A stretch of 30,091 nucleotides of DNA from an archaeon (GTDB lineage: Archaea > Nanobdellota > Nanobdellia > UBA10117): positions 1 to 30,091 of the forward strand of contig JAZDME010000026.1 of assembly GCA_043801255.1 (NCBI GenBank), written 5' to 3'. Shown here piece by piece: positions 9,151 to 20,805 of the stretch (position 1 is its first letter; each line of letters begins with the position of its first letter). The position numbers and the translations under genes are program-made. The notes beneath the pieces are model-generated. The model saw only the letters and a program-made list of their open reading frames with translations, ran no database searches and had not been told where the DNA came from.

Positions 9151-9285
9151 TGACGACTACTATAACTGGCTACAACGACGAACGGGGATATGTCTATTGA
9201 TTGTGGGAGCAAAAATCTTGCTTGTGGGACTTGTAGCGAAGCCAAAATACATGGCAATTTCCCTAGTCGTCCGTCGTAGTCGTCA
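9151..9285 (+). repeat. Palindromic repeat family copy 5
   Basis: Perfect 10-bp terminal inverted repeat TGACGACTAC/GTAGTCGTCA; core ATTGATTGTGGGAGCAAAAA and GCGAAGCCAAAATACATGGCAATTTCCCTAG. Confidence 0.88.
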
Positions 9286-9341: not shown

Positions 9342-9755
9342 ATGGCCACAGAGTTGCATTTATCTCATAGTCCCGTTCCAAGAATTAAGCGGCAGATGCG
9401 GGAGTTAAAGTCAAATGATGATGTGCACAGGCACCTGCTGCACGAGGTCATAGAATCAAACCTGAAAACGCAGCAGTCTATCGCAGAAGTGTCCAGAAGC
9501 ATCAACGATTTTGTCAATACCATAAAGTCCGTAAGCGATATCCCTGAAGAGGCGGGCGCGCAAAAACCTGCGCCCCGAGTTTCAGCTTCTGAAATCGAGC
9601 AGAAGCTTGACAGGATTGCAACACAGAATCTTCAGCTCATCGAGCTTATTTCGGAGCTTGTAAAGCACCTGAAAAAAGGGTCTGCGTCTTTGGCTCCGCC
9701 GCCAGGCCCGCAGGCATATGAGGGAACATATCCGCAGCTCAGGCAGTTAAGATGA
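9342..9755 (+). CDS. Hypothetical coiled-coil protein, coupled to first pilin gene
   Basis: 137-aa helical ORF; ATGA overlap with 9752; TATA-like CTTAAATA ~30 nt upstream. Confidence 0.65.
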   Translation: MATELHLSHSPVPRIKRQMRELKSNDDVHRHLLHEVIESNLKTQQSIAEVSRSINDFVNTIKSVSDIPEEAGAQKPAPRVSASEIEQKLDRIATQNLQLIELISELVKHLKKGSASLAPPPGPQAYEGTYPQLRQLR

Positions 9756-10306
9756 ACATATTTCCATTCGGAAGGTCAAAAAAAGCAATCTCCCCGATAA
9801 TTGCAGTTATACTGCTATTGATGATGACCGTTGCTGTCGCAGGAGCCGCATTTTTCTGGCTCTCCCGCATCCAAGGACAGATGCAGGGCGGCGTAGAGTC
9901 ATACCAGAGCAAGATTTTCGAGAATATTGCGTCACGGGTTGACGTAATTGACGCGGATTACCAAACAATCAGCAGCGTCGAATATCTTACTATTTTCCTG
10001 CACAACACAGGCAACTCAAAAATACCTGTGAGCAGCGCCGCATCATTTCCGACAACAACATGGATTCTGAAGGATTCAGACCAGGTCGCGGTATGCTCAA
10101 CAAACTGGGGAGGCGGCACAAACCAGACTGCCTGCACCGAAGGCTGCGGCTCAACAACGCAGATTGATGTGGGCGAAATACACAAAGTAGTTTTAAGGTT
10201 GTCAGGCACAACCTGCGCACTATCCCTAAAATCATCAGGCACGGTATTTTCATTCACAATTGACTTTTCAGGAAAAACCACTACGTCAGGCAGTTTTGTG
10301 AAATGA
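9752..10306 (+). CDS. Archaeal type IV pilin-like protein
   Basis: Class III signal KKA|ISPIIAVILLLMMTVAVAG (Pilin_N/DUF1628-type N-terminus). Confidence 0.9.
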   Translation: MNIFPFGRSKKAISPIIAVILLLMMTVAVAGAAFFWLSRIQGQMQGGVESYQSKIFENIASRVDVIDADYQTISSVEYLTIFLHNTGNSKIPVSSAASFPTTTWILKDSDQVAVCSTNWGGGTNQTACTEGCGSTTQIDVGEIHKVVLRLSGTTCALSLKSSGTVFSFTIDFSGKTTTSGSFVK

Positions 10307-11358
10307 TGAAATCTTCAAAAGGCATAGAGTCCATAATTGCCGTATTACTTGTGGTAATGATAACAATAGCTGCCGCAGGCAGCTTTTATTTCTGGTATAC
10401 GCGCGTCCAGCAGGAAGCCCAGGGCAGAACTGAACAGTCAACAACAAATTACCTGAAACAGCTGAACTCGTGCATAAAGTTCCCTTATTTTGAATACAGT
10501 TTATACTCAAATGAATCGTATGTACAGGTGCAGAACTGCGGTTCGATTCCAATTACAATCGGGGATGGCGATGACAATGTGCTGATATCATCCGAGCCCT
10601 GCGCATTTGCAGTTGACTCGCAGGTATGCAACATATGCCCTTTTACGGTAAACCCCGGCGCATTTAACAAATTCAAGTTGAACTTTAATCATGCAGCATG
10701 TTCAGGCACCAATGAAACAGCCGCGGATGTTTTGTCTGATGAGGGAAATGTGCAGCACACGATTTCCTTTTCAATGGATACGGCAGCCGTAACAGCAACA
10801 AAGAACTTTGAACCAACCAACAATATAATCATACCAACCAATGTAACAACATACTGGCGGGATGATTTCAACGACCTGGGCAGCTGGATAAAAACAGGAA
10901 CAGACACGATGGAAATTGTAAATGGGACCCTGCATATTTTAACAGCTTCGGACATGGCCCAGCTGACTACTAACGATATAATGTTTAGCTTTGACACAAC
11001 AAAAGACTACACAGTCAAAACAAGAGTAAAGATAGCAGGGCCATCACACTGGCTGTTCTTCATGTACAATAACGGCGTGCATCTGGTTTACGATATTTCT
11101 ACTCTCAGCTGCAGATATGGCAATATCAATACTCAGATTGCCCCGCTCACGATCGGGCAGTGGTATGATATTCAGGCAAATGTGCAGCCATCTTCCGACG
11201 TATATGATGTTTATCTTAACGGAACCCTGATGCAAACATGCAGCATGCCAACAGACAGGCTAACTGACGAGTTCCTGATCGGGGACTTTGAGGCAGGGCT
11301 TATAAATTTTGGAGAGATGTACTTCGATTACTTTGAGGTCAACAGCACGTCCGTATAA
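10303..11358 (+). CDS. Type IV pilin-like protein with C-terminal beta-sandwich (ConA/LamG-like) domain
   Basis: SKG|IESIIAVLLVVMITIAAAG; tail starts WRDDFND and includes WYDIQANV..YDVYLNG..FGEMYFDYFEV. Fold assignment is inference. Confidence 0.82.
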   Translation: MMKSSKGIESIIAVLLVVMITIAAAGSFYFWYTRVQQEAQGRTEQSTTNYLKQLNSCIKFPYFEYSLYSNESYVQVQNCGSIPITIGDGDDNVLISSEPCAFAVDSQVCNICPFTVNPGAFNKFKLNFNHAACSGTNETAADVLSDEGNVQHTISFSMDTAAVTATKNFEPTNNIIIPTNVTTYWRDDFNDLGSWIKTGTDTMEIVNGTLHILTASDMAQLTTNDIMFSFDTTKDYTVKTRVKIAGPSHWLFFMYNNGVHLVYDISTLSCRYGNINTQIAPLTIGQWYDIQANVQPSSDVYDVYLNGTLMQTCSMPTDRLTDEFLIGDFEAGLINFGEMYFDYFEVNSTSV

Positions 11359-11374
11359 CTCTCTATCCAAAGTC

Positions 11375-11394
11375 TAATCAATAATTTAATATAG
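11375..11394 (+). promoter_or_regulatory. Putative TATA-box promoter of pilin 11415
   Basis: TAATCAATAATTTAATATAG ending 20 nt before the ATG; identical 20-mer at 12387-12406. Confidence 0.6.
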
Positions 11395-11414
11395 CGGTTT
11401 TGTGACGTAACGCT

Positions 11415-12332
11415 ATGTCGTCAAAGAAAGGAGTTGATACCATAATTGCTGTACTGCTTGTGGTAATGATAACAATAGCTGCCGCAGGCAGCTTTTATTT
11501 CTGGTATATCCGAGTCCAGCAGGAAGCCCAGAGCAAGGCAGAGCAGTCAACATCATCATTTCTTACCCAGATAAACACATGCATAAAGATGCCTTACTTT
11601 TCATATAATCTTTTGACAAACACATCTGAGGCGCAGGTGCAGAACTGCGGTTCAACGCCGCTGACAATAGGCGATGGCGATGACAATGTGCTGATATCAT
11701 CCGAGCCCTGCGCATTTGCAGTTGACTCGCAAATATGCGATATATGCCCGTTTGTTATCGGACCCGGGGCGTTCGGGAAATTTAAGATGAATATGAACAG
11801 GGCAACATGCTCCGGAACAAATGTGACAGCAGCAAAGCTGCTCTCGGGCGAGGGAAACATGCAGCATAAAGTGACATTTTCAATGGAAAAATCAACAGTA
11901 ACCGCTTCGCAGAGCTTTGTTCCTGAAGCAGACGTTAAGTGCAGCGTTAATCTGAACGGCACTGCAAGCATAATTTTCCCATGGATTTCTGCACCATGGT
12001 ATGTGCTGCGTGAAGGGACTGCAGCATATAATTTATCGCTGTCCAGCAATATACCGCAGACATTTGCAATCAGCGGGAGTTTTAACCTGCCTGACTGCAA
12101 TGTTACTTATACAAACGACAGTCTTTGCCGCAGCTATAACTATCCGGATTTAAATCCGAATATGACCGCAATAGCATCAATAACTGTTAATCCGGACACA
12201 GGCGCACTGTTCCTGGGATGTATTTACTGCAGCCTTGGCGGCGATATAGGCAATTTAACAACAACAGTCAGGTCAACAGACCTTGCAACTTGCAACGAGG
12301 CAAAAACATCAACTTCAATTGATCAGAGATAA
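11415..12332 (+). CDS. Type IV pilin-like protein, paralog of 10303 with a different C-terminal domain
   Basis: KKG|VDTIIAVLLVVMITIAAAG; first ~165 aa align with the 10303 product, then diverge. Confidence 0.85.
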   Translation: MSSKKGVDTIIAVLLVVMITIAAAGSFYFWYIRVQQEAQSKAEQSTSSFLTQINTCIKMPYFSYNLLTNTSEAQVQNCGSTPLTIGDGDDNVLISSEPCAFAVDSQICDICPFVIGPGAFGKFKMNMNRATCSGTNVTAAKLLSGEGNMQHKVTFSMEKSTVTASQSFVPEADVKCSVNLNGTASIIFPWISAPWYVLREGTAAYNLSLSSNIPQTFAISGSFNLPDCNVTYTNDSLCRSYNYPDLNPNMTAIASITVNPDTGALFLGCIYCSLGGDIGNLTTTVRSTDLATCNEAKTSTSIDQR

Positions 12333-12386
12333 CAAAAACTCGCTGCAAGTTTTTGGAATGGAAAAATGCCGCGAAGCCTTTTTCCA

Positions 12387-12406
12387 TAATCAATAATTTA
12401 ATATAG
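12387..12406 (+). promoter_or_regulatory. Putative TATA-box promoter of pilin 12428
   Basis: TAATCAATAATTTAATATAG ending 21 nt before the ATG; identical to 11375-11394. Confidence 0.6.
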
Positions 12407-12427
12407 TTACTAACAGATAAATTTCTG

Positions 12428-12970
12428 ATGGCCGCGCATTTTAACAGGAAAGGCATAACTCCCATAATAGCGGCAATACTTTTGGTGATGATAGGGGTTG
12501 CAGCCGCAGGAGGCATGTTTTTCTGGCTGACAAAAATACAGAGCCAGGGGCAGGGCAATGTCGAAGGCTCAGAAAATACCCTGCTGGAAAATGTTGCAAC
12601 CTGTGTTGATATGCCCAGCGCGACATTTGACTTGACAAATAACAAGCTCAGGCTTGCAATTCAGAACTGCGGCAGCAATAAATTCATAGTTGGGGACGGC
12701 GATGACAAATTTATAATAACTCCAGAAACCTGCTCTTTTGTGCCGACTTGTTCAATGGTTACAAGCACGGTCTGCCCCATGACGTTACTGCCAGGCGCAC
12801 TCGGGCGGATGGATTTTAACACGGGCCTGATAACATGCGAAGGCTCAGCAAACGGCACGCTTGCAAGCACCATGGCAAATCAGCAGGGCGTATCGCACCA
12901 GCTAATAATCTCCATTGACAAAAAGACAACAGCTGCACGAGGTTTCGTGCCTGAAACAAGCACAGCATGA
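12428..12970 (+). CDS. Type IV pilin-like protein (third paralog, no C-terminal extension)
   Basis: RKG|ITPIIAAILLVMIGVAAAG; shares QNCGS..GDGDD..C..C core with 10303 and 11415. Confidence 0.87.
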   Translation: MAAHFNRKGITPIIAAILLVMIGVAAAGGMFFWLTKIQSQGQGNVEGSENTLLENVATCVDMPSATFDLTNNKLRLAIQNCGSNKFIVGDGDDKFIITPETCSFVPTCSMVTSTVCPMTLLPGALGRMDFNTGLITCEGSANGTLASTMANQQGVSHQLIISIDKKTTAARGFVPETSTA

Positions 12971-12974
12971 TAAA

Positions 12975-13556
12975 ATGAACCGCAAAGCACAATCAACAGT
13001 CATAGGATTTCTGGCGATAACTGCCATCGCCATTGTGATTGCAGGCACAACTTTTCTGTGGGCAAAACCATTGCTTGACAGGACAATGGCGCAGGATGAA
13101 GTCCTGCGCATTGAAAACAGGATGCTTGAACTGCATGCGGCAATAACAAGAGTCGCAAACACGCAGAGCCAGGCATCAGTGAGTTTTGATATAACCAAGG
13201 GAACACTGACTCTGGACCAAGATAATTCAATTATTTTCAAGATGTTTTCGGACCTGGCAAATCCATATCAGAATGTAGTCCTTCTTGGCAACGGAACCAC
13301 CGAGCTTGGAATCTTGGGCGTAAATGAGCCGGCATATATTCTGGAGCAGGGCTCTTATCTGGCAAAGCTGCATTACATTGTTCTTTATGATACTGCAACA
13401 GGCAATTGCAAAGGCATACGCCTGGAACCGGGAGGGCAGGTTACGGTAGGGCAGGGCAGGCACAGCGTGTTCCTGAAATGGGCGCGGCAGAACGAAACAA
13501 CTGTTGCCGGCTGCGCATCTACAACGCTGCAGGTGGTTCAGGTCGATATAGAATGA
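12975..13556 (+). CDS. Class III signal peptide protein (minor pilin-like)
   Basis: MNRKA|QSTVIGFLAITAIAIVIAG; start moved from 12915 to 12975. Confidence 0.8.
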   Translation: MNRKAQSTVIGFLAITAIAIVIAGTTFLWAKPLLDRTMAQDEVLRIENRMLELHAAITRVANTQSQASVSFDITKGTLTLDQDNSIIFKMFSDLANPYQNVVLLGNGTTELGILGVNEPAYILEQGSYLAKLHYIVLYDTATGNCKGIRLEPGGQVTVGQGRHSVFLKWARQNETTVAGCASTTLQVVQVDIE

Positions 13557-14206
13557 CGAAAACTGACGATGGACTAGGGCAAAGGTGTTTGATTATGGAA
13601 CAAATTGCTAAGCAATTTTTCCATTCCGCCAAATCGCTACGATTTGGCGTTAAGGGAAGCAAAAGTCCTGCCGAGAGAGAAACCCTGACACAATCAATGA
13701 GGCCCAAGCCGAACGAAGTTCGGCGGGGCGCAGCCGAAATCTCATTTCGGCTAGTGTTTTCCCCTCGTCGTAATCCGTCGTCGTCAAGAGCACAGTACTC
13801 CGTAGTCTACATGCTTGCGATTTCAGGAATACTGATTTTTTTGATGGGCGCTGTTTTTATCATGACAAGCAGTTTCCAGCGGGCAACAACCGAAAATTTC
13901 GGGCGCGAGATTCTTGGCAGCGTTACAGCGAAAATAGAAACCAGCCTGATTGAGTTTAAGGAGCTCAGCAAGAATGCAAACACGTCATCAGCAAACATAA
14001 ATATACCTGAACTTATTGGCGAGCAAAGGTATCAGGTAACAGCAAACCAGCACATGATTGAAATAAGAACATTCGGCAACCCGTCGCTGGTGCAGCAGTA
14101 TAACGTGACTTTCTGGGATGCGGATTTAGGCGGCTCTGTATTTTCTTCCAAAGGCAAGATACATGTGACATATTCTGCAGCCAACAATAAGGTGATGTTT
14201 GAATAA
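13553..14206 (+). CDS. Class III signal peptide protein with repeat-derived 80-aa leader
   Basis: ATG 13553 overlaps the upstream TGA (ATGA); SSRA|QYSVVYMLAISGILIFLMG follows the repeat-encoded leader. Confidence 0.72.
   Translation: MTKTDDGLGQRCLIMEQIAKQFFHSAKSLRFGVKGSKSPAERETLTQSMRPKPNEVRRGAAEISFRLVFSPRRNPSSSRAQYSVVYMLAISGILIFLMGAVFIMTSSFQRATTENFGREILGSVTAKIETSLIEFKELSKNANTSSANINIPELIGEQRYQVTANQHMIEIRTFGNPSLVQQYNVTFWDADLGGSVFSSKGKIHVTYSAANNKVMFE
13554..13786 (+). repeat. Palindromic repeat family copy 6 (longest, in frame inside a CDS)
   Basis: Ends TGACGA/TCGTCA; GGACTAGGGCAAAGG left, CCCCTCGTCGTAATCCGTCGTCGTCA right; several internal hairpin modules. Confidence 0.85.
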
Positions 14207-14207
14207 A

Positions 14208-14402
14208 CTGGCTGCTGCTGCGACTAACGACGACTAGGGAAAAGGATATTGATTGAGGGACAGTAAAAACTATCTTGGCTTGCGGATTAGGCAAAACATT
14301 TCAGCAAAGCTAAAATACATGGCGACCCGAGCCAACAAAGTTGGCTGGGCACAGCCGAAATCTCATTTCGGCTAGTGTTGCCCTCGTAGTCAGCAGTCGT
14401 AG
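14208..14402 (+). repeat. Palindromic repeat family copy 7
   Basis: ACGACGACTAGGGAAAAGGATATTGATTGAGGG...AAAGCTAAAATACATGGCG...GCCCTCGTAGTCAGCAGTCGTAG. Confidence 0.85.
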
Positions 14403-14446
14403 TTTGTTGCATAAATTTTTAATAGCCAGCGCCCGAGTGAGTATAG

Positions 14447-16192
14447 ATGGCCATTAACATAGCTGTGCTGCGGAACATTTTCAGAAAAGCAGAACTTGAT
14501 AAAACTGCAGCCAGGGCAAGTAAGATTACAGAGCTGCCAGCCGAACAGGCGCAGGCTCAGGAGCCAGTTACGCATGTTATTGAGCCTCTCGCAGAAGTGA
14601 AGCCTGCAGAGGTAAAAGACGAGCTTACGCCAATATCGCTTCCAAAAGTTTATGAACGGACAACGATTGCCCGCGAAGACGTTCTTTCAAGAATAAGGCA
14701 GGTTTCAGAAACATATCCGCTGATTGTAACAAAGTGGCGCGGCGCGCGCTATGTTGTTGCAACCGCAAATATTGCGTTTAATCCGGTAAGCAACCAGCTT
14801 AACTACGTGGTTGAAGAACCGCCCGTTGACAGCAAACTCAAGGAAATAATAAAAAAAACAATAGAGCTTCTGCAGAGCAGGCTGGAAGTTGACTTTTCAA
14901 CTTTGAAAGCAAAAAGGGAAGTTTACTCATTTGTTGATAAAAAGGTAACTGAAATATGGGAATATCTTCAGATAAATCCTACGCCAGAAGAGGAGCTAAA
15001 GGCAAAATACTATATTTTCCGCGATACCATCGGGCTTGGGAAAATTGAGGCGCTTATGCGCGACCCGAACATAGAGGATATCTCCGCAGACGGCGTGGGC
15101 ATTCCGGTTTTTATCTTTCACAGGAATCCGCTGTACGGCGAAATGCCAACCAACATTATTTTTAATTCGAAACAGGAGCTTGACTCTTTTGCAATGCGGC
15201 TTGCGCAGAAATCCGGAAAGACAATTTCTGTTGCCACGCCGCTGCTGGACGCAATGCTTCCGGATAACAGCAGGCTCCAGGTAACATTCGGCACTGACAT
15301 AGCGCGCAAGGGCTCTAATTTTTCAATCAGAAAATTCTTCAAAATCCCGCTCACAGTCGTGGACTTGATAAATTACGGGACAATAAGCCCGCTGATGCTT
15401 GCGTACCTCTGGTTTGCGGTTGAGGAGCAGCAGTCTGTTTTAATCACGGGGGGAACTGCAACAGGAAAAACCACTTTCCTTAATTCAATTTCACAGTTCA
15501 TACATCCTACTCTCAAAATTGTTTCAATTGAGGACACAGCAGAGTTGATGCTGCCGCAGGTAAACTGGGTTCCGCAAATTGCACGCTCAGGCTACGGCCC
15601 GAGGAAATACGGCGAAGTCAGCATGTTTGACCTTCTCAAAGCAGCACTGAGGCAGCGTCCGGATTACATAATAGTCGGGGAAGTAAGAGGAGAGGAAGCA
15701 AATGTAATGTTCCAGGCCATGGCTACCGGGCACCCGTCTCTCAGCACGATACATGCGGACAGCATGGACGCTGTTATTGACAGGCTTACAACAAGGCCGA
15801 TATCACTCCCGCTGGCGTTATTGGCGCATCTTGACATCGTGGTATTTCTGGAAAAGACAAAAAAAGCAGGCAAGTTTGCAAGGCGCGTAAGCCAGATTCT
15901 GGAAATAACAAACTACGACCGCGATTTGAACAAGCTGAAAAATGCGGAAGTTTTCAAATGGCTGCCTGCTGAAGACGAGTTCGTGGCAGAAAACAGCTTC
16001 ATCCTTGCAAGAATAGCAAAACGGCTCGGAAAAACACCGGTGCAGATAAAAGAGGAAATCCTCAGGCGCGCAGCAGTAATGCGCTGGATGGTCGAGAACA
16101 ACATCCACGGTTTTAAGGACGTTGCCCACATTATACAGCTGTATTATGTAGACCCCAAACGGCTTGCAGATATGATGGCCCAGAGGAGATGA
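14447..16192 (+). CDS. Type II/IV secretion ATPase (archaeal pilus assembly ATPase, TadA/ArlI-like)
   Basis: Walker A GGTATGKTT, Asp box SIEDTAEL, Walker B LRQRPDYIIVGEVRG, His box GHPSLSTIHA. Confidence 0.95.
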   Translation: MAINIAVLRNIFRKAELDKTAARASKITELPAEQAQAQEPVTHVIEPLAEVKPAEVKDELTPISLPKVYERTTIAREDVLSRIRQVSETYPLIVTKWRGARYVVATANIAFNPVSNQLNYVVEEPPVDSKLKEIIKKTIELLQSRLEVDFSTLKAKREVYSFVDKKVTEIWEYLQINPTPEEELKAKYYIFRDTIGLGKIEALMRDPNIEDISADGVGIPVFIFHRNPLYGEMPTNIIFNSKQELDSFAMRLAQKSGKTISVATPLLDAMLPDNSRLQVTFGTDIARKGSNFSIRKFFKIPLTVVDLINYGTISPLMLAYLWFAVEEQQSVLITGGTATGKTTFLNSISQFIHPTLKIVSIEDTAELMLPQVNWVPQIARSGYGPRKYGEVSMFDLLKAALRQRPDYIIVGEVRGEEANVMFQAMATGHPSLSTIHADSMDAVIDRLTTRPISLPLALLAHLDIVVFLEKTKKAGKFARRVSQILEITNYDRDLNKLKNAEVFKWLPAEDEFVAENSFILARIAKRLGKTPVQIKEEILRRAAVMRWMVENNIHGFKDVAHIIQLYYVDPKRLADMMAQRR

Positions 16193-16320
16193 CTACTACG
16201 GACTACGAGAGCAAAGGTCACTGATTTCGGCATCATTTTCTCAGCATGCTTGCTTTTGACTAGCTTTAATCAATGGCATTTGAACGCCGAGCGTTAGCGA
16301 GGCGCGTTCGCAGTCGTCAG
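16190..16320 (+). repeat. Palindromic repeat family copy 8 (degenerate core)
   Basis: TGACTACTACGGACTACGAGAGCAAAGG left arm starting at the ATPase stop; right arm CAGTCGTCAG. Confidence 0.7.
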
Positions 16321-16359
16321 CGTAAAACTTAATACTGCCTTTAAATTCTAGATTTAGTA

Positions 16360-17241
16360 ATGGCCGCCAGTTCAAACATATATGCGCAATCATTCGGTTT
16401 ATTCAGCTCCATAGTCAAAAAGCACGAGAGTTTTTTCCAGCCGCTGCAGGACGACCTGAGAAAAGCGCACATCACAGTTCCGACAGAGCACTGGGCAGCA
16501 TTTACCATATTTGTGGCGGTTATGACGTCAATACCAGCTTTCATATTCTGCCTGATGTTTGCAGTCGTCGGCATGGGTTTCGGGCTGTCTGCGGTACTCG
16601 TGGGAATCTGCGCAGGCTTAGGCATAACTGCAGGCTCATTTTTTCTGGCGTATAAATACCCGTCCCTGGCAGCAGACGAGCGGAAAAAGAAAATCGAAAA
16701 CGCGCTTTCATTTTCAACAATTTACATGTCAACCATAGCGCGTTCAGGATTTCCGCCGCAGGAAATCTTCCGCCTTCTGGGCGGATTTACGGAATACGGC
16801 GAAGTTGCGAAGGAAGCAAGAAAAATATCCTCAGACATTAACGTGCTGGGGCTCGATGTGTCTGCAGCGCTGAACATGGCTGCGGCAAGAAGCCCGAGCG
16901 CAGACTGGACAGAGCTTCTCGCTGGGCTGAAAACAACAATCAATGTCGGCGGAGACCTTGGCAGTTTTCTTTCGGAAAAAGCAAAAGGATTTGTCGCGGA
17001 TTACAGGCGCAGGCTGAAGGACTTCAGCAATATGCTCAGCCTGCTGGTTGAAGTTTATATCACTCTGGTAGTTGTAGGAGTTGTATTTTTCATTGTTACA
17101 ACATCGGTAATGGTTGCAATAGGCGGCGTGCCAGTCGAGCTGATAAAAATGATAAATTACGCGCTGGTGCTGGTGGGAATGCCGATAATTACAGCAGCGT
17201 TCATATTAATCATAAAAGGAATTTCGCCCCTGGAGGCTTAG
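16360..17241 (+). CDS. T2SS-F/TadC-like pilus platform protein
   Basis: Multi-TM; ERKKKIENALSF...YMSTIARSG, GEVAKE..KI..DINVLGLD, TINVGGDLGSFL pattern next to the ATPase. Confidence 0.9.
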   Translation: MAASSNIYAQSFGLFSSIVKKHESFFQPLQDDLRKAHITVPTEHWAAFTIFVAVMTSIPAFIFCLMFAVVGMGFGLSAVLVGICAGLGITAGSFFLAYKYPSLAADERKKKIENALSFSTIYMSTIARSGFPPQEIFRLLGGFTEYGEVAKEARKISSDINVLGLDVSAALNMAAARSPSADWTELLAGLKTTINVGGDLGSFLSEKAKGFVADYRRRLKDFSNMLSLLVEVYITLVVVGVVFFIVTTSVMVAIGGVPVELIKMINYALVLVGMPIITAAFILIIKGISPLEA

Positions 17242-18429
17242 ATGGATAAACACAAGAGCAAGGACAAAACTGAATTTTTGGAAAAAGTAGAGCGCGAAAT
17301 CCTTGGAATTTACAAGCATAAATTTACAGTGCTTTTGGCAACGCTGCCAGTGCCCGTATTGCTGGCATTGGCAGCTTACCTGCTTGGCAGCACAAGCACA
17401 ACTGTTGTTGCTGTTCTGTCACTGGGATTGGTTTTTGTGCTGGTGCCGTATTCGCTGATAAGCTTTCTTGAGTTCAGGGAAATCAAGGCAGCAGAAGACA
17501 GTTTTCCGGCTTTTCTCAGGGATATAGCGCAGTCCGTGGCAGCAGGCATGACCATACCGCAGGCTGTTGCAACAGCGTCGCAGACAAACTACGGGGTTTT
17601 GTCAAAGTATGTGCAGAAACTTAATGCAATGCTTTCGTGGAGCATGCCTTTCCCGGACGCATGGGCGCGCTTTACAACCACATTGAAAAGGTCATCAATG
17701 ATAAGCAGGATAAACGCAGTCGTTCTGGAGTCATTTTATGCCGGCGGCGAGATAGGCACGGTTCTCAGTTCGCTGGCGACAGACGTAAACATGCTGAAGC
17801 GCATGGAATCTGATAAAAAATCAATGATGCAGGAGCATGTTGCAGTAATGTACTTTGTATTTTTCATATTTCTGGGAATAATAATAGGCCTGCACAAAAT
17901 TCTTGTCCCGATTTTATATGTGCAGAAACTAGGGGTTTTCGGCGGGCTTGCCCTGCGCCCCGCGGAAGTTATAACCGTTGAATATTTCAAATCGCTTTTT
18001 TTTGTCATGACTCTGATACAGGCAGTAAGCATCGGCGCCATCGCGGGGCAGATAGCTGAAGAAAGAATTATCGCGGGCTTGAAGCACGTTGTAATAATGG
18101 TCGCCGTAGGCATGGTTGCATTTTTCATTTTTGTTTTTCCGTCTACAATGACGCTGGACGCAGAAGTATTTCCAAGCACGCCGGCAATCGGACAGCATAT
18201 TTCAATCAGCGGCTCGGTAACCTTTGATGCGCAGCCTGCGTCAGGCGCGCAGGTGCAAATCATGCTATCAGACAACACGGCGCAGTCAGTATTTACAGAC
18301 GGGCTGGGCCAGTTTGATACTATTATTACCGCGCCCACTCAGCCCGGGCAGTATACAATTATGATTTCAGTAACTTACTCAGGAGAAACAAAGGTACTTT
18401 CAAAAGCAATTGCAGTGGGGATGGCATAG
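17242..18429 (+). CDS. Second T2SS-F/TadC-like protein with C-terminal Ig-like extension
   Basis: EDSFPAFLRDIAQSVAAGMTIPQA, ESFYAGGEIGTVL; ~90-aa beta-rich tail after the last TM helix. Confidence 0.88.
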   Translation: MDKHKSKDKTEFLEKVEREILGIYKHKFTVLLATLPVPVLLALAAYLLGSTSTTVVAVLSLGLVFVLVPYSLISFLEFREIKAAEDSFPAFLRDIAQSVAAGMTIPQAVATASQTNYGVLSKYVQKLNAMLSWSMPFPDAWARFTTTLKRSSMISRINAVVLESFYAGGEIGTVLSSLATDVNMLKRMESDKKSMMQEHVAVMYFVFFIFLGIIIGLHKILVPILYVQKLGVFGGLALRPAEVITVEYFKSLFFVMTLIQAVSIGAIAGQIAEERIIAGLKHVVIMVAVGMVAFFIFVFPSTMTLDAEVFPSTPAIGQHISISGSVTFDAQPASGAQVQIMLSDNTAQSVFTDGLGQFDTIITAPTQPGQYTIMISVTYSGETKVLSKAIAVGMA

Positions 18430-18454
18430 GGAAATAATCTGGAAATATGTCAGC

Positions 18455-18562
18455 AACGACGACTACTAGGGCAAAGCGCATTGATCCGGGCATCGGAAAC
18501 TCTCGGGGCTGGCAGTTGGTGCTCCCCCAAACAATAACAATAACCTAGTCGTCCGTCGTCGT
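18455..18562 (+). repeat. Palindromic repeat family copy 9
   Basis: ACGACGACTACTAGGGCAAAG left; CCTAGTCGTCCGTCGTCGT right. Confidence 0.82.
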
Positions 18563-18572
18563 AAAACAAAAA

Positions 18573-19418
18573 ATGTCAATAAAACAAAACCGCAATGCAC
18601 AATCGCCCGCCGAATTTATCATAGTTGTTTTTCTTTTTCTAATAATACTTATTTCGGTTTTCACAACGTTTATGACAAAACTCCGCCCGGAGATTGAAAA
18701 AGTGGTTGAGCAAAAAGCATGCCTGAAAGCAAGCGGTTTGGCCACGTACGTATTGAAAGAGCCCGGCTCGCCCTCAGCATGGACACCAGCGAATATTCAG
18801 ATATTCGGGCTGACTAACGGCACAGATGATATTATATCTTATGACAAGTGGCTTGCTGCGCAGGGCGCAGGCAATGCAGTCATAAGCAGAAAAGTGGTTC
18901 CCGACACAAGCTTTCTGCTCGGATATTCAATTTATGCTTTTAAGCCAGATGTTGCAGACACATGTCAGGCAGTAAATGGAACCGTGATTTGCAGGACTGG
19001 CACAGTCATACACATTACTTCGATATCTGCTTCTCAGGCAACACTTAACTTGAAACTGTTTTTCCCGTTCAGCACGGCAGCAGCAACCACAGGAACTAGG
19101 GAATCTGATGATACTGTTACAACAAGCAGCTCAAGCGGCACTACCATGACTATTGCGCTGCACACAAGCGCATCAGATTCGGACACGTTTGATATATCCC
19201 TGTCGGCATATCCGCGCCTGGCTTTTATACAGGAAGCAGACCACAAAACGTCCGGAGGAGTGAGCCTGCCGATTTTCATAGGAAACACTTCTGCAGTTGA
19301 AAGTTTCGGCTCCGCAACAACAGGCGTAAACAATTACTGCGAGGCAGAGCGTGGAGCGGACATTCTGGGAAAGAGTAATGAGCTTTTCCCGGCGAGGTTC
19401 AGCATACTGGCATGGTGA
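18573..19418 (+). CDS. Class III signal peptide protein (minor pilin-like)
   Basis: MSIKQNRNA|QSPAEFIIVVFLFLIILISVF with Glu at +5; C..A..LA..LLKEPG.P..W pattern. Confidence 0.8.
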   Translation: MSIKQNRNAQSPAEFIIVVFLFLIILISVFTTFMTKLRPEIEKVVEQKACLKASGLATYVLKEPGSPSAWTPANIQIFGLTNGTDDIISYDKWLAAQGAGNAVISRKVVPDTSFLLGYSIYAFKPDVADTCQAVNGTVICRTGTVIHITSISASQATLNLKLFFPFSTAAATTGTRESDDTVTTSSSSGTTMTIALHTSASDSDTFDISLSAYPRLAFIQEADHKTSGGVSLPIFIGNTSAVESFGSATTGVNNYCEAERGADILGKSNELFPARFSILAW

Positions 19419-19999
19419 TGGATATTACGGCTGGAGAGGTTTATGAACGAGGGCAAAGGGTATTGATTAAAGGCAGCCAGCGCCATCTCGATTGGCGAGC
19501 ATGGAAGACCGAAGCCATAACCAATGACCATTCCCCCCGTCGTCGTAGTCGTCGTTTAAACAAGAAGGGATTTTTTTATTTTGTGGAAGTAGCGCTTATC
19601 GGGATGCTGCTTATTACATTCTTTTTCGTATTTTCGCCAAAGGCGGAAACCAGCTATCAGGGCCTGCAGGATGCCAGAAATCTGAAACAGGCAGGATACG
19701 GAACTTTAAAATCACTTGATGACACAGGCGTACTTTCCGCGTATATAGATCCCAGCACAATGGCAAATTCAAATTTCGCAGCGCTTAAAACCTACATAAG
19801 TGCAGCCCTGCCAGAAGCAGTTTATTCGCAGATTGAATACGCCGAAAGCTCAACATCCTGCTATTCAGAAACAGGCGTCAGCAGAAGCTGCGGCTTGAAT
19901 GTAACAAACTTGAAAGCTGATGTGATAAGGGCAGATTATACTTATTCCAAGCGCCCGTCGCCAATAACCATACATATCTTTCTCTGGAGGGCGCTATGA
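19418..19999 (+). CDS. Class III signal peptide protein with repeat-derived 51-aa leader
   Basis: TGATG overlap with upstream stop; NKKG|FFYFVEVALIGMLLITFFF follows the repeat-encoded leader. Confidence 0.75.
   Translation: MDITAGEVYERGQRVLIKGSQRHLDWRAWKTEAITNDHSPRRRSRRLNKKGFFYFVEVALIGMLLITFFFVFSPKAETSYQGLQDARNLKQAGYGTLKSLDDTGVLSAYIDPSTMANSNFAALKTYISAALPEAVYSQIEYAESSTSCYSETGVSRSCGLNVTNLKADVIRADYTYSKRPSPITIHIFLWRAL
19425..19555 (+). repeat. Palindromic repeat family copy 10 (in frame inside a CDS; left arm degenerate)
   Basis: GAACGAGGGCAAAGGGTATTGATT, GAAGCCATAACCAATG, CCCCCGTCGTCGTAGTCGTCGT. Confidence 0.78.
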
Positions 20000-20805
20000 C
20001 TTGTGACGACGAACGGCTACGACGACTACGATTGATATCTCCATTGATTGAGGGAAGAAATGCTATTCCAGTTGACGAGAGCAAACATGACGCTCAGCAA
20101 AAGCCAAATACATGGCGATTGCCCTCGTCGTTTAGTCGTCGCTTCAGCAGCAGGGGGCAGTTCATGATTGTAACAATAGTCCTTATAGGGCTCGCATTTT
20201 TCACGATGTTCCTTCTTGTCAGGACTGCCGACAGGAATGCAGTTGTAATGTTTGAACAGCCAGAAGCAGCAGCAAATTTTGAGAACCTGCAAAATGCCAT
20301 AATACACAGGAACAGCTGGATGCAGGATTACTGGTGGAATCTTAACTGGGAAAATCGGGCAGCCATAAACATAACCGAAGGTGCGGAAAATCCTGTGATG
20401 GTAAACGCAGGAATTCCCGGAGGGACAAACTGCAACGGGGAAGTCCGCGTTGTAAATTCAACTGGCGCAGAGCTGAAATCAAATGTCAACTCAGAGCAGT
20501 CTCCGTGCAACGTTATTTTTACGGCGGACACAACAGGCATATACTATGTTTACTGGAATAATCCGGAGGCTGTAGCGCCTTCTTACAGAGTCGAAGTCCA
20601 GTCTGAAGGAAATGTGCCTGCAAGATACAATATCTTGGGAGAGGTTTCACCGAAGTCAAAATTCTGCCCCAATTTTGAAAATATTTCACTGGCAGCGGAA
20701 GCGCAGCTGGACTGCGGTATCCAGAGCATCATAAACAACAAAAAGGTCAACTATAAGATAGATTATGCTTCCACGGATTTTTCGTTCTCGGGATATTTGA
20801 GTTAG
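19996..20805 (+). CDS. Class III signal peptide protein with repeat-derived 54-aa leader
   Basis: ATGA overlap with upstream stop; SSRG|QFMIVTIVLIGLAFFTMF follows the repeat-encoded leader; WWNLNWENR.AINI segment downstream. Confidence 0.75.
   Translation: MTCDDERLRRLRLISPLIEGRNAIPVDESKHDAQQKPNTWRLPSSFSRRFSSRGQFMIVTIVLIGLAFFTMFLLVRTADRNAVVMFEQPEAAANFENLQNAIIHRNSWMQDYWWNLNWENRAAINITEGAENPVMVNAGIPGGTNCNGEVRVVNSTGAELKSNVNSEQSPCNVIFTADTTGIYYVYWNNPEAVAPSYRVEVQSEGNVPARYNILGEVSPKSKFCPNFENISLAAEAQLDCGIQSIINNKKVNYKIDYASTDFSFSGYLS
20004..20141 (+). repeat. Palindromic repeat family copy 11 (in frame inside a CDS)
   Basis: TGACGACGAACGGCTACGACGACTACG, ATTGATTGAGGGAAG, AAAGCCAAATACATGGCGATTGCCCTCGTCGTTTAGTCGTCG. 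Confidence 0.85.

Follow-up and report, generated by a model that had tools for sequence, protein, structure and literature searches.

Palindromic repeats that sit in frame inside protein-coding genes have been described in bacteria, as Rickettsia palindromic elements (RPEs) and intragenic repetitive extragenic palindromic (REP) sequences (PMC10969869, PMC3733652). Prepilins, for their part, carry leaders of 6–26 amino acids (aa), at most about 30 (PMC4471445), which stay on the cytoplasmic side and are cleaved at the membrane's inner face (PMC4471445, PMC10191384). Here, we analysed a window of 30,091 nucleotides (nt), the entire contig C13 (JAZDME010000026.1) of the archaeal assembly GCA_043801255.1 (Nanobdellota; Nanobdellia; UBA10117). 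In its type IV pilus operon a palindromic element lies, in frame and without a stop, between the start codon and the class III cleavage motif of three pilin-like genes, called g1, g2 and g3 hereafter. From sequence comparison, we give a probability of roughly two in three to the reading in which long in-frame leaders of 53–80 aa are translated from the ancestral ATG through the element and are then cut off by the A24 prepilin peptidase.

The arrangement resembles that of RPEs and of the intragenic palindromes tagged by CGTC or GTAG: short non-autonomous palindromes in a reduced genome, with an in-frame subset read as extra peptide and many of the intragenic copies at the N-termini of open reading frames (ORFs; PMC10969869, PMC3733652). 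The arms of the element are themselves built of triplets containing CGTC and GTAG (GTCGTCGTAGTCGTC). This likeness is one of arrangement; no sequence homology to RPEs is claimed, nor would any be expected between domains. Unlike RPEs, of which 19 out of 44 are coding in R. conorii, the element has an archaeal host, only about five of its approximately 140 copies are coding, and these lie in a removed segment or a disordered tail and not within folded domains. It is also larger than REPs (20–40 nt), with an overall length of 100–220 nt and 40 nt arms. With prokaryotic MITEs (miniature transposable elements with inverted repeats; Sulfolobus, Halobacterium, Correia, ERIC) it shares a small size, terminal inverted repeats, a high copy number, a mostly intergenic location, the lack of coding capacity of its own and lineage-specific bursts; unlike them, the entire element is one long imperfect palindrome, and a check of the Y1/TnpB pair of this genome revealed no partner transposase carrying the same ends. 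Finally, the predicted precursors share with long-leader prepilins (type IVb, Flp, S. sanguinis) a hydrophilic positive cytoplasmic leader that ends in G or A (−1) and is followed by a hydrophobic helix, together with an aspartic peptidase of the A24 family, but their leaders would reach 45–80 aa (6–26 and up to about 30 aa in the known cases; PMC4471445) and would derive from a mobile repeat and not from the pilin lineage. Our literature search returned archaeal MITEs, with none found in DPANN or in signal-peptide leaders. What is new here is thus the occurrence of RPE-type in-frame palindromes in Archaea, in another reduced genome, and their concentration in a discarded protein segment. The features concerned are the following (a slash marks the predicted cleavage site).

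13553-13792, forward strand: 80 codons that encode the g1 leader; the ancestral ATG overlaps the stop of the upstream pilin gene as ATGA, and the last codon is that of Ala −1 in SRA/QYS.
13562-13786, forward strand: element copy in the g1 leader, stop-free; the leader including Gln +1 measures 243 nt, a multiple of three.
13793-14206, forward strand: g1 mature pilin-like protein, with a weak DUF7266 match.
19412-19570, forward strand: g2 leader-coding stretch, 53 codons from ATG 19412 (51 from ATG 19418) to Gly −1 of NKKG/FFY.
19445-19556 (approximately), forward strand: element copy in the g2 leader, with a decayed left arm and a right arm without in-frame start codon.
19571-19999, forward strand: g2 mature pilin-like protein (synteny, orthologues).
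19986-19990, forward strand: GGAGG Shine–Dalgarno-like motif, 5 nt 5′ of the ancestral g3 ATG.
19996-20157, forward strand: 54 codons that encode the g3 leader; their ATG overlaps the g2 stop as ATGA, and the last codon is that of Gly −1 in SRG/QFM.
20005-20142, forward strand: element copy in the g3 leader, with an in-frame TTG at 20119 in its right arm as a possible internal start.
20158-20805, forward strand: g3 mature pilin-like protein (orthologues, ratio of nonsynonymous to synonymous substitution, dN/dS).

A first-pass annotation of this DNA had described the three genes as starting on the upstream stop codon, then running through a repeat copy to a class III motif, and the coordinates bear this out. 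ATG 13553 overlaps TGA 13554-13556, ATG 19996 overlaps TGA 19997-19999 and ATG 19418 shares one base with TGA 19416-19418; the element is followed by SSSRA/QYSVVY in g1, LNKKG/FFYFVE in g2 and FSSRG/QFMIVT in g3. The leader lengths that it gave (80, 51 and 54 aa) hold for g1 and g3, while that of g2 becomes 53 aa, since orthologues begin ATGGTAATG or ATGGTAAAC and the ancestral start is therefore ATG 19412. The leaders of 5–12 aa that it reported for the six other pilins and the Arg/Ser-rich stretches encoded by the right arm are both found. At each site G or A occupies position −1 after K or R, and approximately 20 mainly hydrophobic residues follow (SRA/QYSVVYMLAISGILIFLMGAVFIM, KKG/FFYFVEVALIGMLLITFFFVF, SRG/QFMIVTIVLIGLAFFTMFLLV); this motif is conserved in all orthologues. 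The expected machinery is also encoded, with a T2SSE ATPase and two T2SSF proteins in the operon and a single, intact A24 prepilin peptidase with a GGGD motif in the genome (C2:6461-7339). Counted from the ancestral ATG, the leaders of g1, g2 and g3 (80, 53 and 54 aa) exceed the published range (6–26/30 aa), within which those of the orthologues fall. The predicted long leaders have a net charge of +3 to +9, are positive beside the cleavage site and lack hydrophobic segments, which fits a positive-inside topology.

The orthologues allow the insertions to be placed to within a few codons. As anticipated, those without the insertion (8–9 family relatives per gene) carry short leaders of the MxRAQ, MxKKG or MxRGQ type, of 4–12 aa and without the repeat (for example MKRA/Q, MVKRG/F and MSKG/Q). 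Three closer lineages were recovered from metagenomes by a search with the ATPase: L026 (85% identity), L029 (80%) and L030 (77%). L029 lacks the element throughout its pilus operon, and its empty sites read ATGACCAAAGCACAG in g1 (MTKA/Q), ATGGTAATGAACAAAAAAGGA in g2 (MVMNKKG/F) and ATGATTTCAAAATCTTCAAGAGCG in g3 (MISKSSRA/Q). Relative to these codons, the element of the window is located at MTK^...^AQ in g1, MVM^...^NKKG in g2 and M(T/I)^...^(S)RGQ in g3; in all three genes the insertion spares both the ancestral ATG and the K/R-G/A context of the cleavage site. Filled and empty sites suggest a possible target-site duplication of 3 bp at g1 (AAA) and at the ATPase/TadB junction of the same operon (GCG), and none is obvious at g2 and g3.

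L026 has the element at all three sites. The g1 copies of the window and of L026 share their otherwise variable centre, which indicates that the insertions are orthologous and older than the split. The in-leader copies of the two lineages are only 74% (g1), 59% (g2) and 62% (g3) identical, with several indels, and the leaders measure 243/138, 159/150 and 162/135 nt, respectively (window/L026); the lengths thus differ by 105, 9 and 27 nt, and all six leaders are multiples of three and stop-free. In g2 the frame is shifted locally (ATT GAT TGG in L026, TTG ATT AAA in the window) and then restored. The g1 copy of the window contains two additional nested hairpin modules (13597-13648 and 13703-13756), both in frame and both missing from the orthologous L026 copy; the second of them is 54 nt long, compared with 52 nt for the same module in an intergenic copy (14326-14377). 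This two-hairpin module (GCCGAACGAAGTTCGGC…GCCGAAATCTCATTTCGGCTAGTG) is nested in some element copies, in the window at 13703-13756 and 14326-14377 and in L026 at 2650-2700, and has the look of a further mobile hairpin of smaller size.

Synonymous sites between the window and L026 are saturated (dS 1.1–1.5), yet dN/dS of the mature parts is 0.13–0.16 (about 0.16 for g1 and about 0.13 for g2), which shows that g1–g3 still function in the two lineages that carry the insertions. With dN/dS of 0.6–0.9 and 36–64% identity, the leaders are constrained for openness and not for sequence. The retention of three open insertions by L026 past synonymous saturation argues for real translation through the element. 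In L030 the g2 site is empty (MVNRKG/F), and a related element is in frame in the leaders of g1 (135 nt) and g3 (150 nt). These two copies (L030:9413-9547 and L030:15115-15264) belong to a diverged subtype with the left core GATTTGAAA..CATG.GTCAGAGCCAGCA and are the only ones within the 21.7 kb of L030 examined; leaders may be a place where old element copies persist. A scan of metagenomes with an 18-nt motif of the L030 type returned mostly unrelated contigs among the matches listed.

Iterated nhmmer searches of the genome gave left and right arm consensuses that are mutually reverse-complementary (ACGACGACCGACGACGAGGGAAATGGCCATTGATTATGGGAAGCAAA and ATAATCAATGGCCATTTCCCTCGTCGTCAGTCGTCGTCG), with arms of approximately 40 nt around a variable centre. 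At E < 0.05, 277 arms assemble into 101 paired copies (80–220 nt) and 75 lone arms, and the genome contains roughly 100–140 copies, about one per 5 kb. A degenerate core pattern of 23 nt has 97 matches in this genome and none in shuffled sequence, and only 0–1 matches per genome in 38 other genomes of the order, so the family is genus-specific. Folded as RNA, the copies form long hairpins whose ends are paired. The family has no Rfam match. Its terminal inverted repeats, length below 300 bp, many copies and lack of an ORF of its own are those of a MITE. We also considered REP sequences with their associated tyrosine transposase (RAYT) and discarded this assignment: the element measures 100–220 nt, GTAG and CGTC are merely part of its triplet arms, and the Y1 gene adjoins TnpB without flanking repeats. 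This sole Y1 (IS200/IS605 TnpA) transposase, beside a TnpB-like gene (C74:1-1700), shows no element arms in its flanks, other (DDE) transposase families not having been searched. No autonomous partner transposase with matching ends was identified, with only the Y1/TnpB pair checked and the assembly incomplete.

The element is ordinarily closed to translation. Stops occur in 88% of element-by-frame combinations genome-wide (72 of 606, or 12%, are stop-free). When 83 intergenic copies are anchored on TTGATT, the frame used by g1–g3 is open in 15, the frame containing TGA in none and the third frame in 14, so that intergenic copies are closed in 82–100% of cases, depending on the frame. Most intergenic copies of the window had been said to contain a stop in the frame used, and indeed those at 9170 and 26677 are open and the remaining copies tested are closed. 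It had also been pointed out that the three genes read the element in the same frame; this is correct for the left arm of the window copies. It carries little weight as evidence, since the TGA in TTGATT always shuts one frame, and L026 g2 and a fourth gene, on contig C60 (see below), use the other permissive frame. The number of open copies is more telling. By chance, about 0.18 × 0.3 (approximately 5%) of copies would be both open and in frame, whereas this holds for ten of ten insertions. The g1–g3 copies of the window were chosen for being open, an ascertainment bias that weakens their own contribution; the clean test is provided by the five copies of the other lineages (L026 g1–g3, L030 g1 and g3), which were scored irrespective of outcome and are all stop-free and multiples of three in length. 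The openness of in-leader copies exceeds chance.

We then compared all arms with stop-to-stop ORFs across the genome. In most of the overlaps the element only extends an ORF at its 5′ end and is closely followed by a normal ATG, as for NDK on C61 and CDP-alcohol phosphatidyltransferase on C22. In five of approximately 140 copies no start codon separates the element from the conserved protein. Besides g1–g3, they concern the following two genes.

C60:8270-8893 (L035:1771-2394): pilin-like gene of a second pilus locus, with the element between its ATG and GRKA/QTVFLD.
C45:3515-4420 (L036:516-1421): ScpB, with an in-frame element in its variable N-terminal tail, residues approximately 10–55.

The leader of the C60 gene is 48 aa long (MKFTKTTDDEGNG...SSVVGRKA/QTVFLD), and those of its orthologues are 4 and 11 aa. 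In ScpB the element lies 5′ of the PF04079 domain (from residue 62), without a start codon between it and the conserved ELKAKIESILF, and the N-terminal tails of the orthologues measure 5–45 aa. This ScpB copy resembles the L030-type subtype. All five insertions are in frame and stop-free, with shorter or empty-site orthologues, as is typical of RPEs. The predicted bias of coding copies towards leaders is therefore found, four of the five being in class III leaders. Class III proteins number approximately 25–30 in the genome (about 4% of the genes, by a crude motif count), and the enrichment of coding copies in their leaders is strong, although three of the four share one tightly packed operon. 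Prepilin leaders are the main case of the 'safe harbour' proposed in the first-pass annotation, but ScpB shows that N-terminal tails in general describe it better; what these copies have in common is an N-terminal location, in a segment that is disordered or would be removed.

How could such insertions have been tolerated? A genus-specific, non-coding palindromic element of the MITE/REP type has spread through this reduced DPANN genome. The ancestral genes of the pilus operon overlapped (ATGA) and offered it no spacer to land in, and copies that landed within the leaders of 5–8 codons of g1, g2 and g3 survived. Translation from the ancestral ATG would read through the element, and the prepilin would bear a cytoplasmic leader of 53–80 aa that is basic and hydrophilic. 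With the [KR][GA]/[QF] site and the hydrophobic helix untouched, the A24 peptidase would remove the entire leader and leave the mature pilin unaltered, the only remaining constraint on the element being to stay stop-free and in frame. Several points weigh against this. The processing of leaders of 45–80 aa would be unprecedented, and if made they would be the longest known. The element RNA folds with a ΔG of −35 to −88 kcal/mol just 3′ of the start codon, where a hairpin could impede translation. Moreover, internal starts would give leaders of 12–32 aa. These would be provided by the right arm of the element (the ATG of CAATGG, or TTG or GTG by CCCTCGTCG), leaving the upstream part untranslated or incidental. 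In-frame candidates occur in g1 (ATG 13697, GTG 13754) and g3 (TTG 20119) of the window, in the C60 gene (TTG), in L026 g1 (ATG, 15 aa leader) and in L030 g1 and g3 (ATG, 13–16 aa leaders); the gene caller picked the internal ATG for L026 g1, and Di Nocera et al. cautioned that, for this reason, REP insertions at N-termini may in many cases be extragenic (PMC3733652). However, the right arms of g2, in the window and in L026, and of L026 g3 contain no in-frame ATG, GTG or TTG (the left arm of window g2 has one TTG), and a start within the element leaves unexplained why the upstream parts are open and multiples of three in ten of ten copies. The GGAGG motif that precedes the ancestral g3 ATG is conserved in four of four lineages, with or without the insertion, although it also falls within the conserved LWR codons that end g2; no comparable motif is found upstream of the internal candidates. 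This placement, together with the maintenance of the frame, favours initiation at the ancestral ATG. We thus regard initiation inside the element as unlikely to account for these genes, while some use of internal starts alongside the ancestral ATG may occur.

The other explanations appear weaker still. The insertions part the proximal start codon from the signal peptide and might have turned g1–g3 into decaying pseudogenes or unexpressed genes. The mature parts are nevertheless stop-free, with the low dN/dS between window and L026 given above at dS > 1, and the family as a whole conserves the genes and their synteny. Since both lineages carry the insertion, it is old and the genes have stayed under purifying selection, so inactivation is hardly credible. 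Excision of the element from the mRNA, by the splicing endonuclease at a bulge–helix–bulge motif or by another RNase, would restore a short leader and would suit both the long hairpins and DPANN genomes, in which unusual introns are common. This idea, raised earlier in the form of EndA splicing, is not supported: bulge–helix–bulge-like motifs number 1–2 per region, as in shuffled sequence, excision would lift the need for a stop-free element, and the hairpin of g2 has decayed (fold z-score +0.23, compared with −2.6 for g3) in a gene that is still conserved. We give it next to no credit. A co-opted leader or RNA hairpin, which for example throttles the translation of minor pilins or delays their processing, would be in keeping with four of the five coding copies being in pilus genes and with the long retention of the insertions in two or three lineages. 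Yet the leader evolves near-neutrally (dN/dS 0.6–0.9, 36–64% identity), the strength of the hairpin is not conserved, L029 and all other family members manage without the insertion, and the ScpB copy indicates that tolerance is not pilus-specific; co-option in place of mere tolerance seems very improbable to us. The near-neutral leader and the decayed g2 hairpin also speak against the tuned function suggested in the first-pass annotation. Likewise, its proposal that the element supplies the required positive charge is not supported, as the ancestral K/R at −2/−3 is retained outside the insertion. We also looked for weaker hairpins in coding copies and abandoned the idea, the z-scores being inconsistent (+0.2 to −5.2, versus −1.6 to −2.3 for intergenic copies). 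A combination in which the leaders are a genuine refuge, with leaders of 45–80 aa made and processed, and in which the hairpin or the long leader has in addition been recruited to limit or time minor versus major pilins, is improbable. Translation through the element from the ancestral ATG, followed by cleavage, is the reading that we retain.

The assembly totals 682,609 bases in 80 contigs and is approximately 72–73% complete. Those ATPase homologues that bear a name are labelled Candidatus Nanoarchaeia, DPANN or Woesearchaeota in our homologue search. The archaeal type IV pilus operon of the window (9342-20805) comprises pilin genes, g1, the ATPase gene, two T2SSF genes, a pilin-like gene, g2 and g3, and 13 relatives of the family have the same order. 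The second pilus locus, on contig C60, has a paralogous ATPase (C60:12143-13321). Rfam and tRNA (ARAGORN) scans of the window gave no match. The remaining genes and intergenic element copies of this part of the operon are the following.

14217-14404, forward strand: element copy between g1 and the ATPase gene, closed in all frames, with the 52 nt nested hairpin module at 14326-14377.
14447-16192, forward strand: FlaI/PilB-like (T2SSE) ATPase (domain match, synteny).
16190-16325, forward strand: element copy at the ATPase/TadB junction, with stops in all frames; shared by the window and L026, lacking in L029 and L030.
16360-17241, forward strand: TadB-like (T2SSF) gene (domain match, synteny).
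17242-18429, forward strand: TadC-like (T2SSF) gene (domain match, synteny).
18456-18562, forward strand: element copy 5′ of the pilin-like gene at 18573, in the normal arrangement, in which the gene retains its own ATG.
18573-19418, forward strand: pilin-like gene upstream of g2, with its own ATG and a leader of 9 aa.

The copy at the ATPase/TadB junction has 3–5 stops per frame in the window and 2–5 in L026. Its insertion point is just 5′ of the ancestral stop (the empty sites read CAGCGTAAGACTTAATAC); the ATPase gene now ends on a TGA formed by the first bases of the element (16190-16192), and the former stop context returns 3′ of the right arm (16310-16335). Since the stop is supplied by the element, elements can replace stop codons in addition to extending N-termini. 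The TadC-like protein has, unusually for a T2SSF protein, a C-terminal extension (residues approximately 311–385) that weakly matches Ig-like and carboxypeptidase-regulatory domains.

Public gene calls of the L026 orthologues are inconsistent: g1 is called from an internal ATG, g2 from the ATG 5′ of the element and g3 from an ATG after the cleavage site, a call that drops the signal-peptide leader entirely (L026:338-793, L026:6429-7079). Since gene callers treat insertion-bearing pilins inconsistently, such pilins will be overlooked or shortened by signal-peptide predictors and annotation pipelines. With filled and empty sites available in pairs, nature also provides a clean experiment in which a coding segment is selected for 'openness only'. 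Should the precursors be made, prepilin peptidases would accept leaders of two to three times the greatest length described, which bears on their substrate recognition. With these genes, the range of in-frame palindromic repeats, best known from Rickettsia, widens to include Archaea and a further lineage that is reduced and host-dependent, in which a leader that would be kept cytoplasmic and then cleaved off may offer insertions a near-costless coding site.

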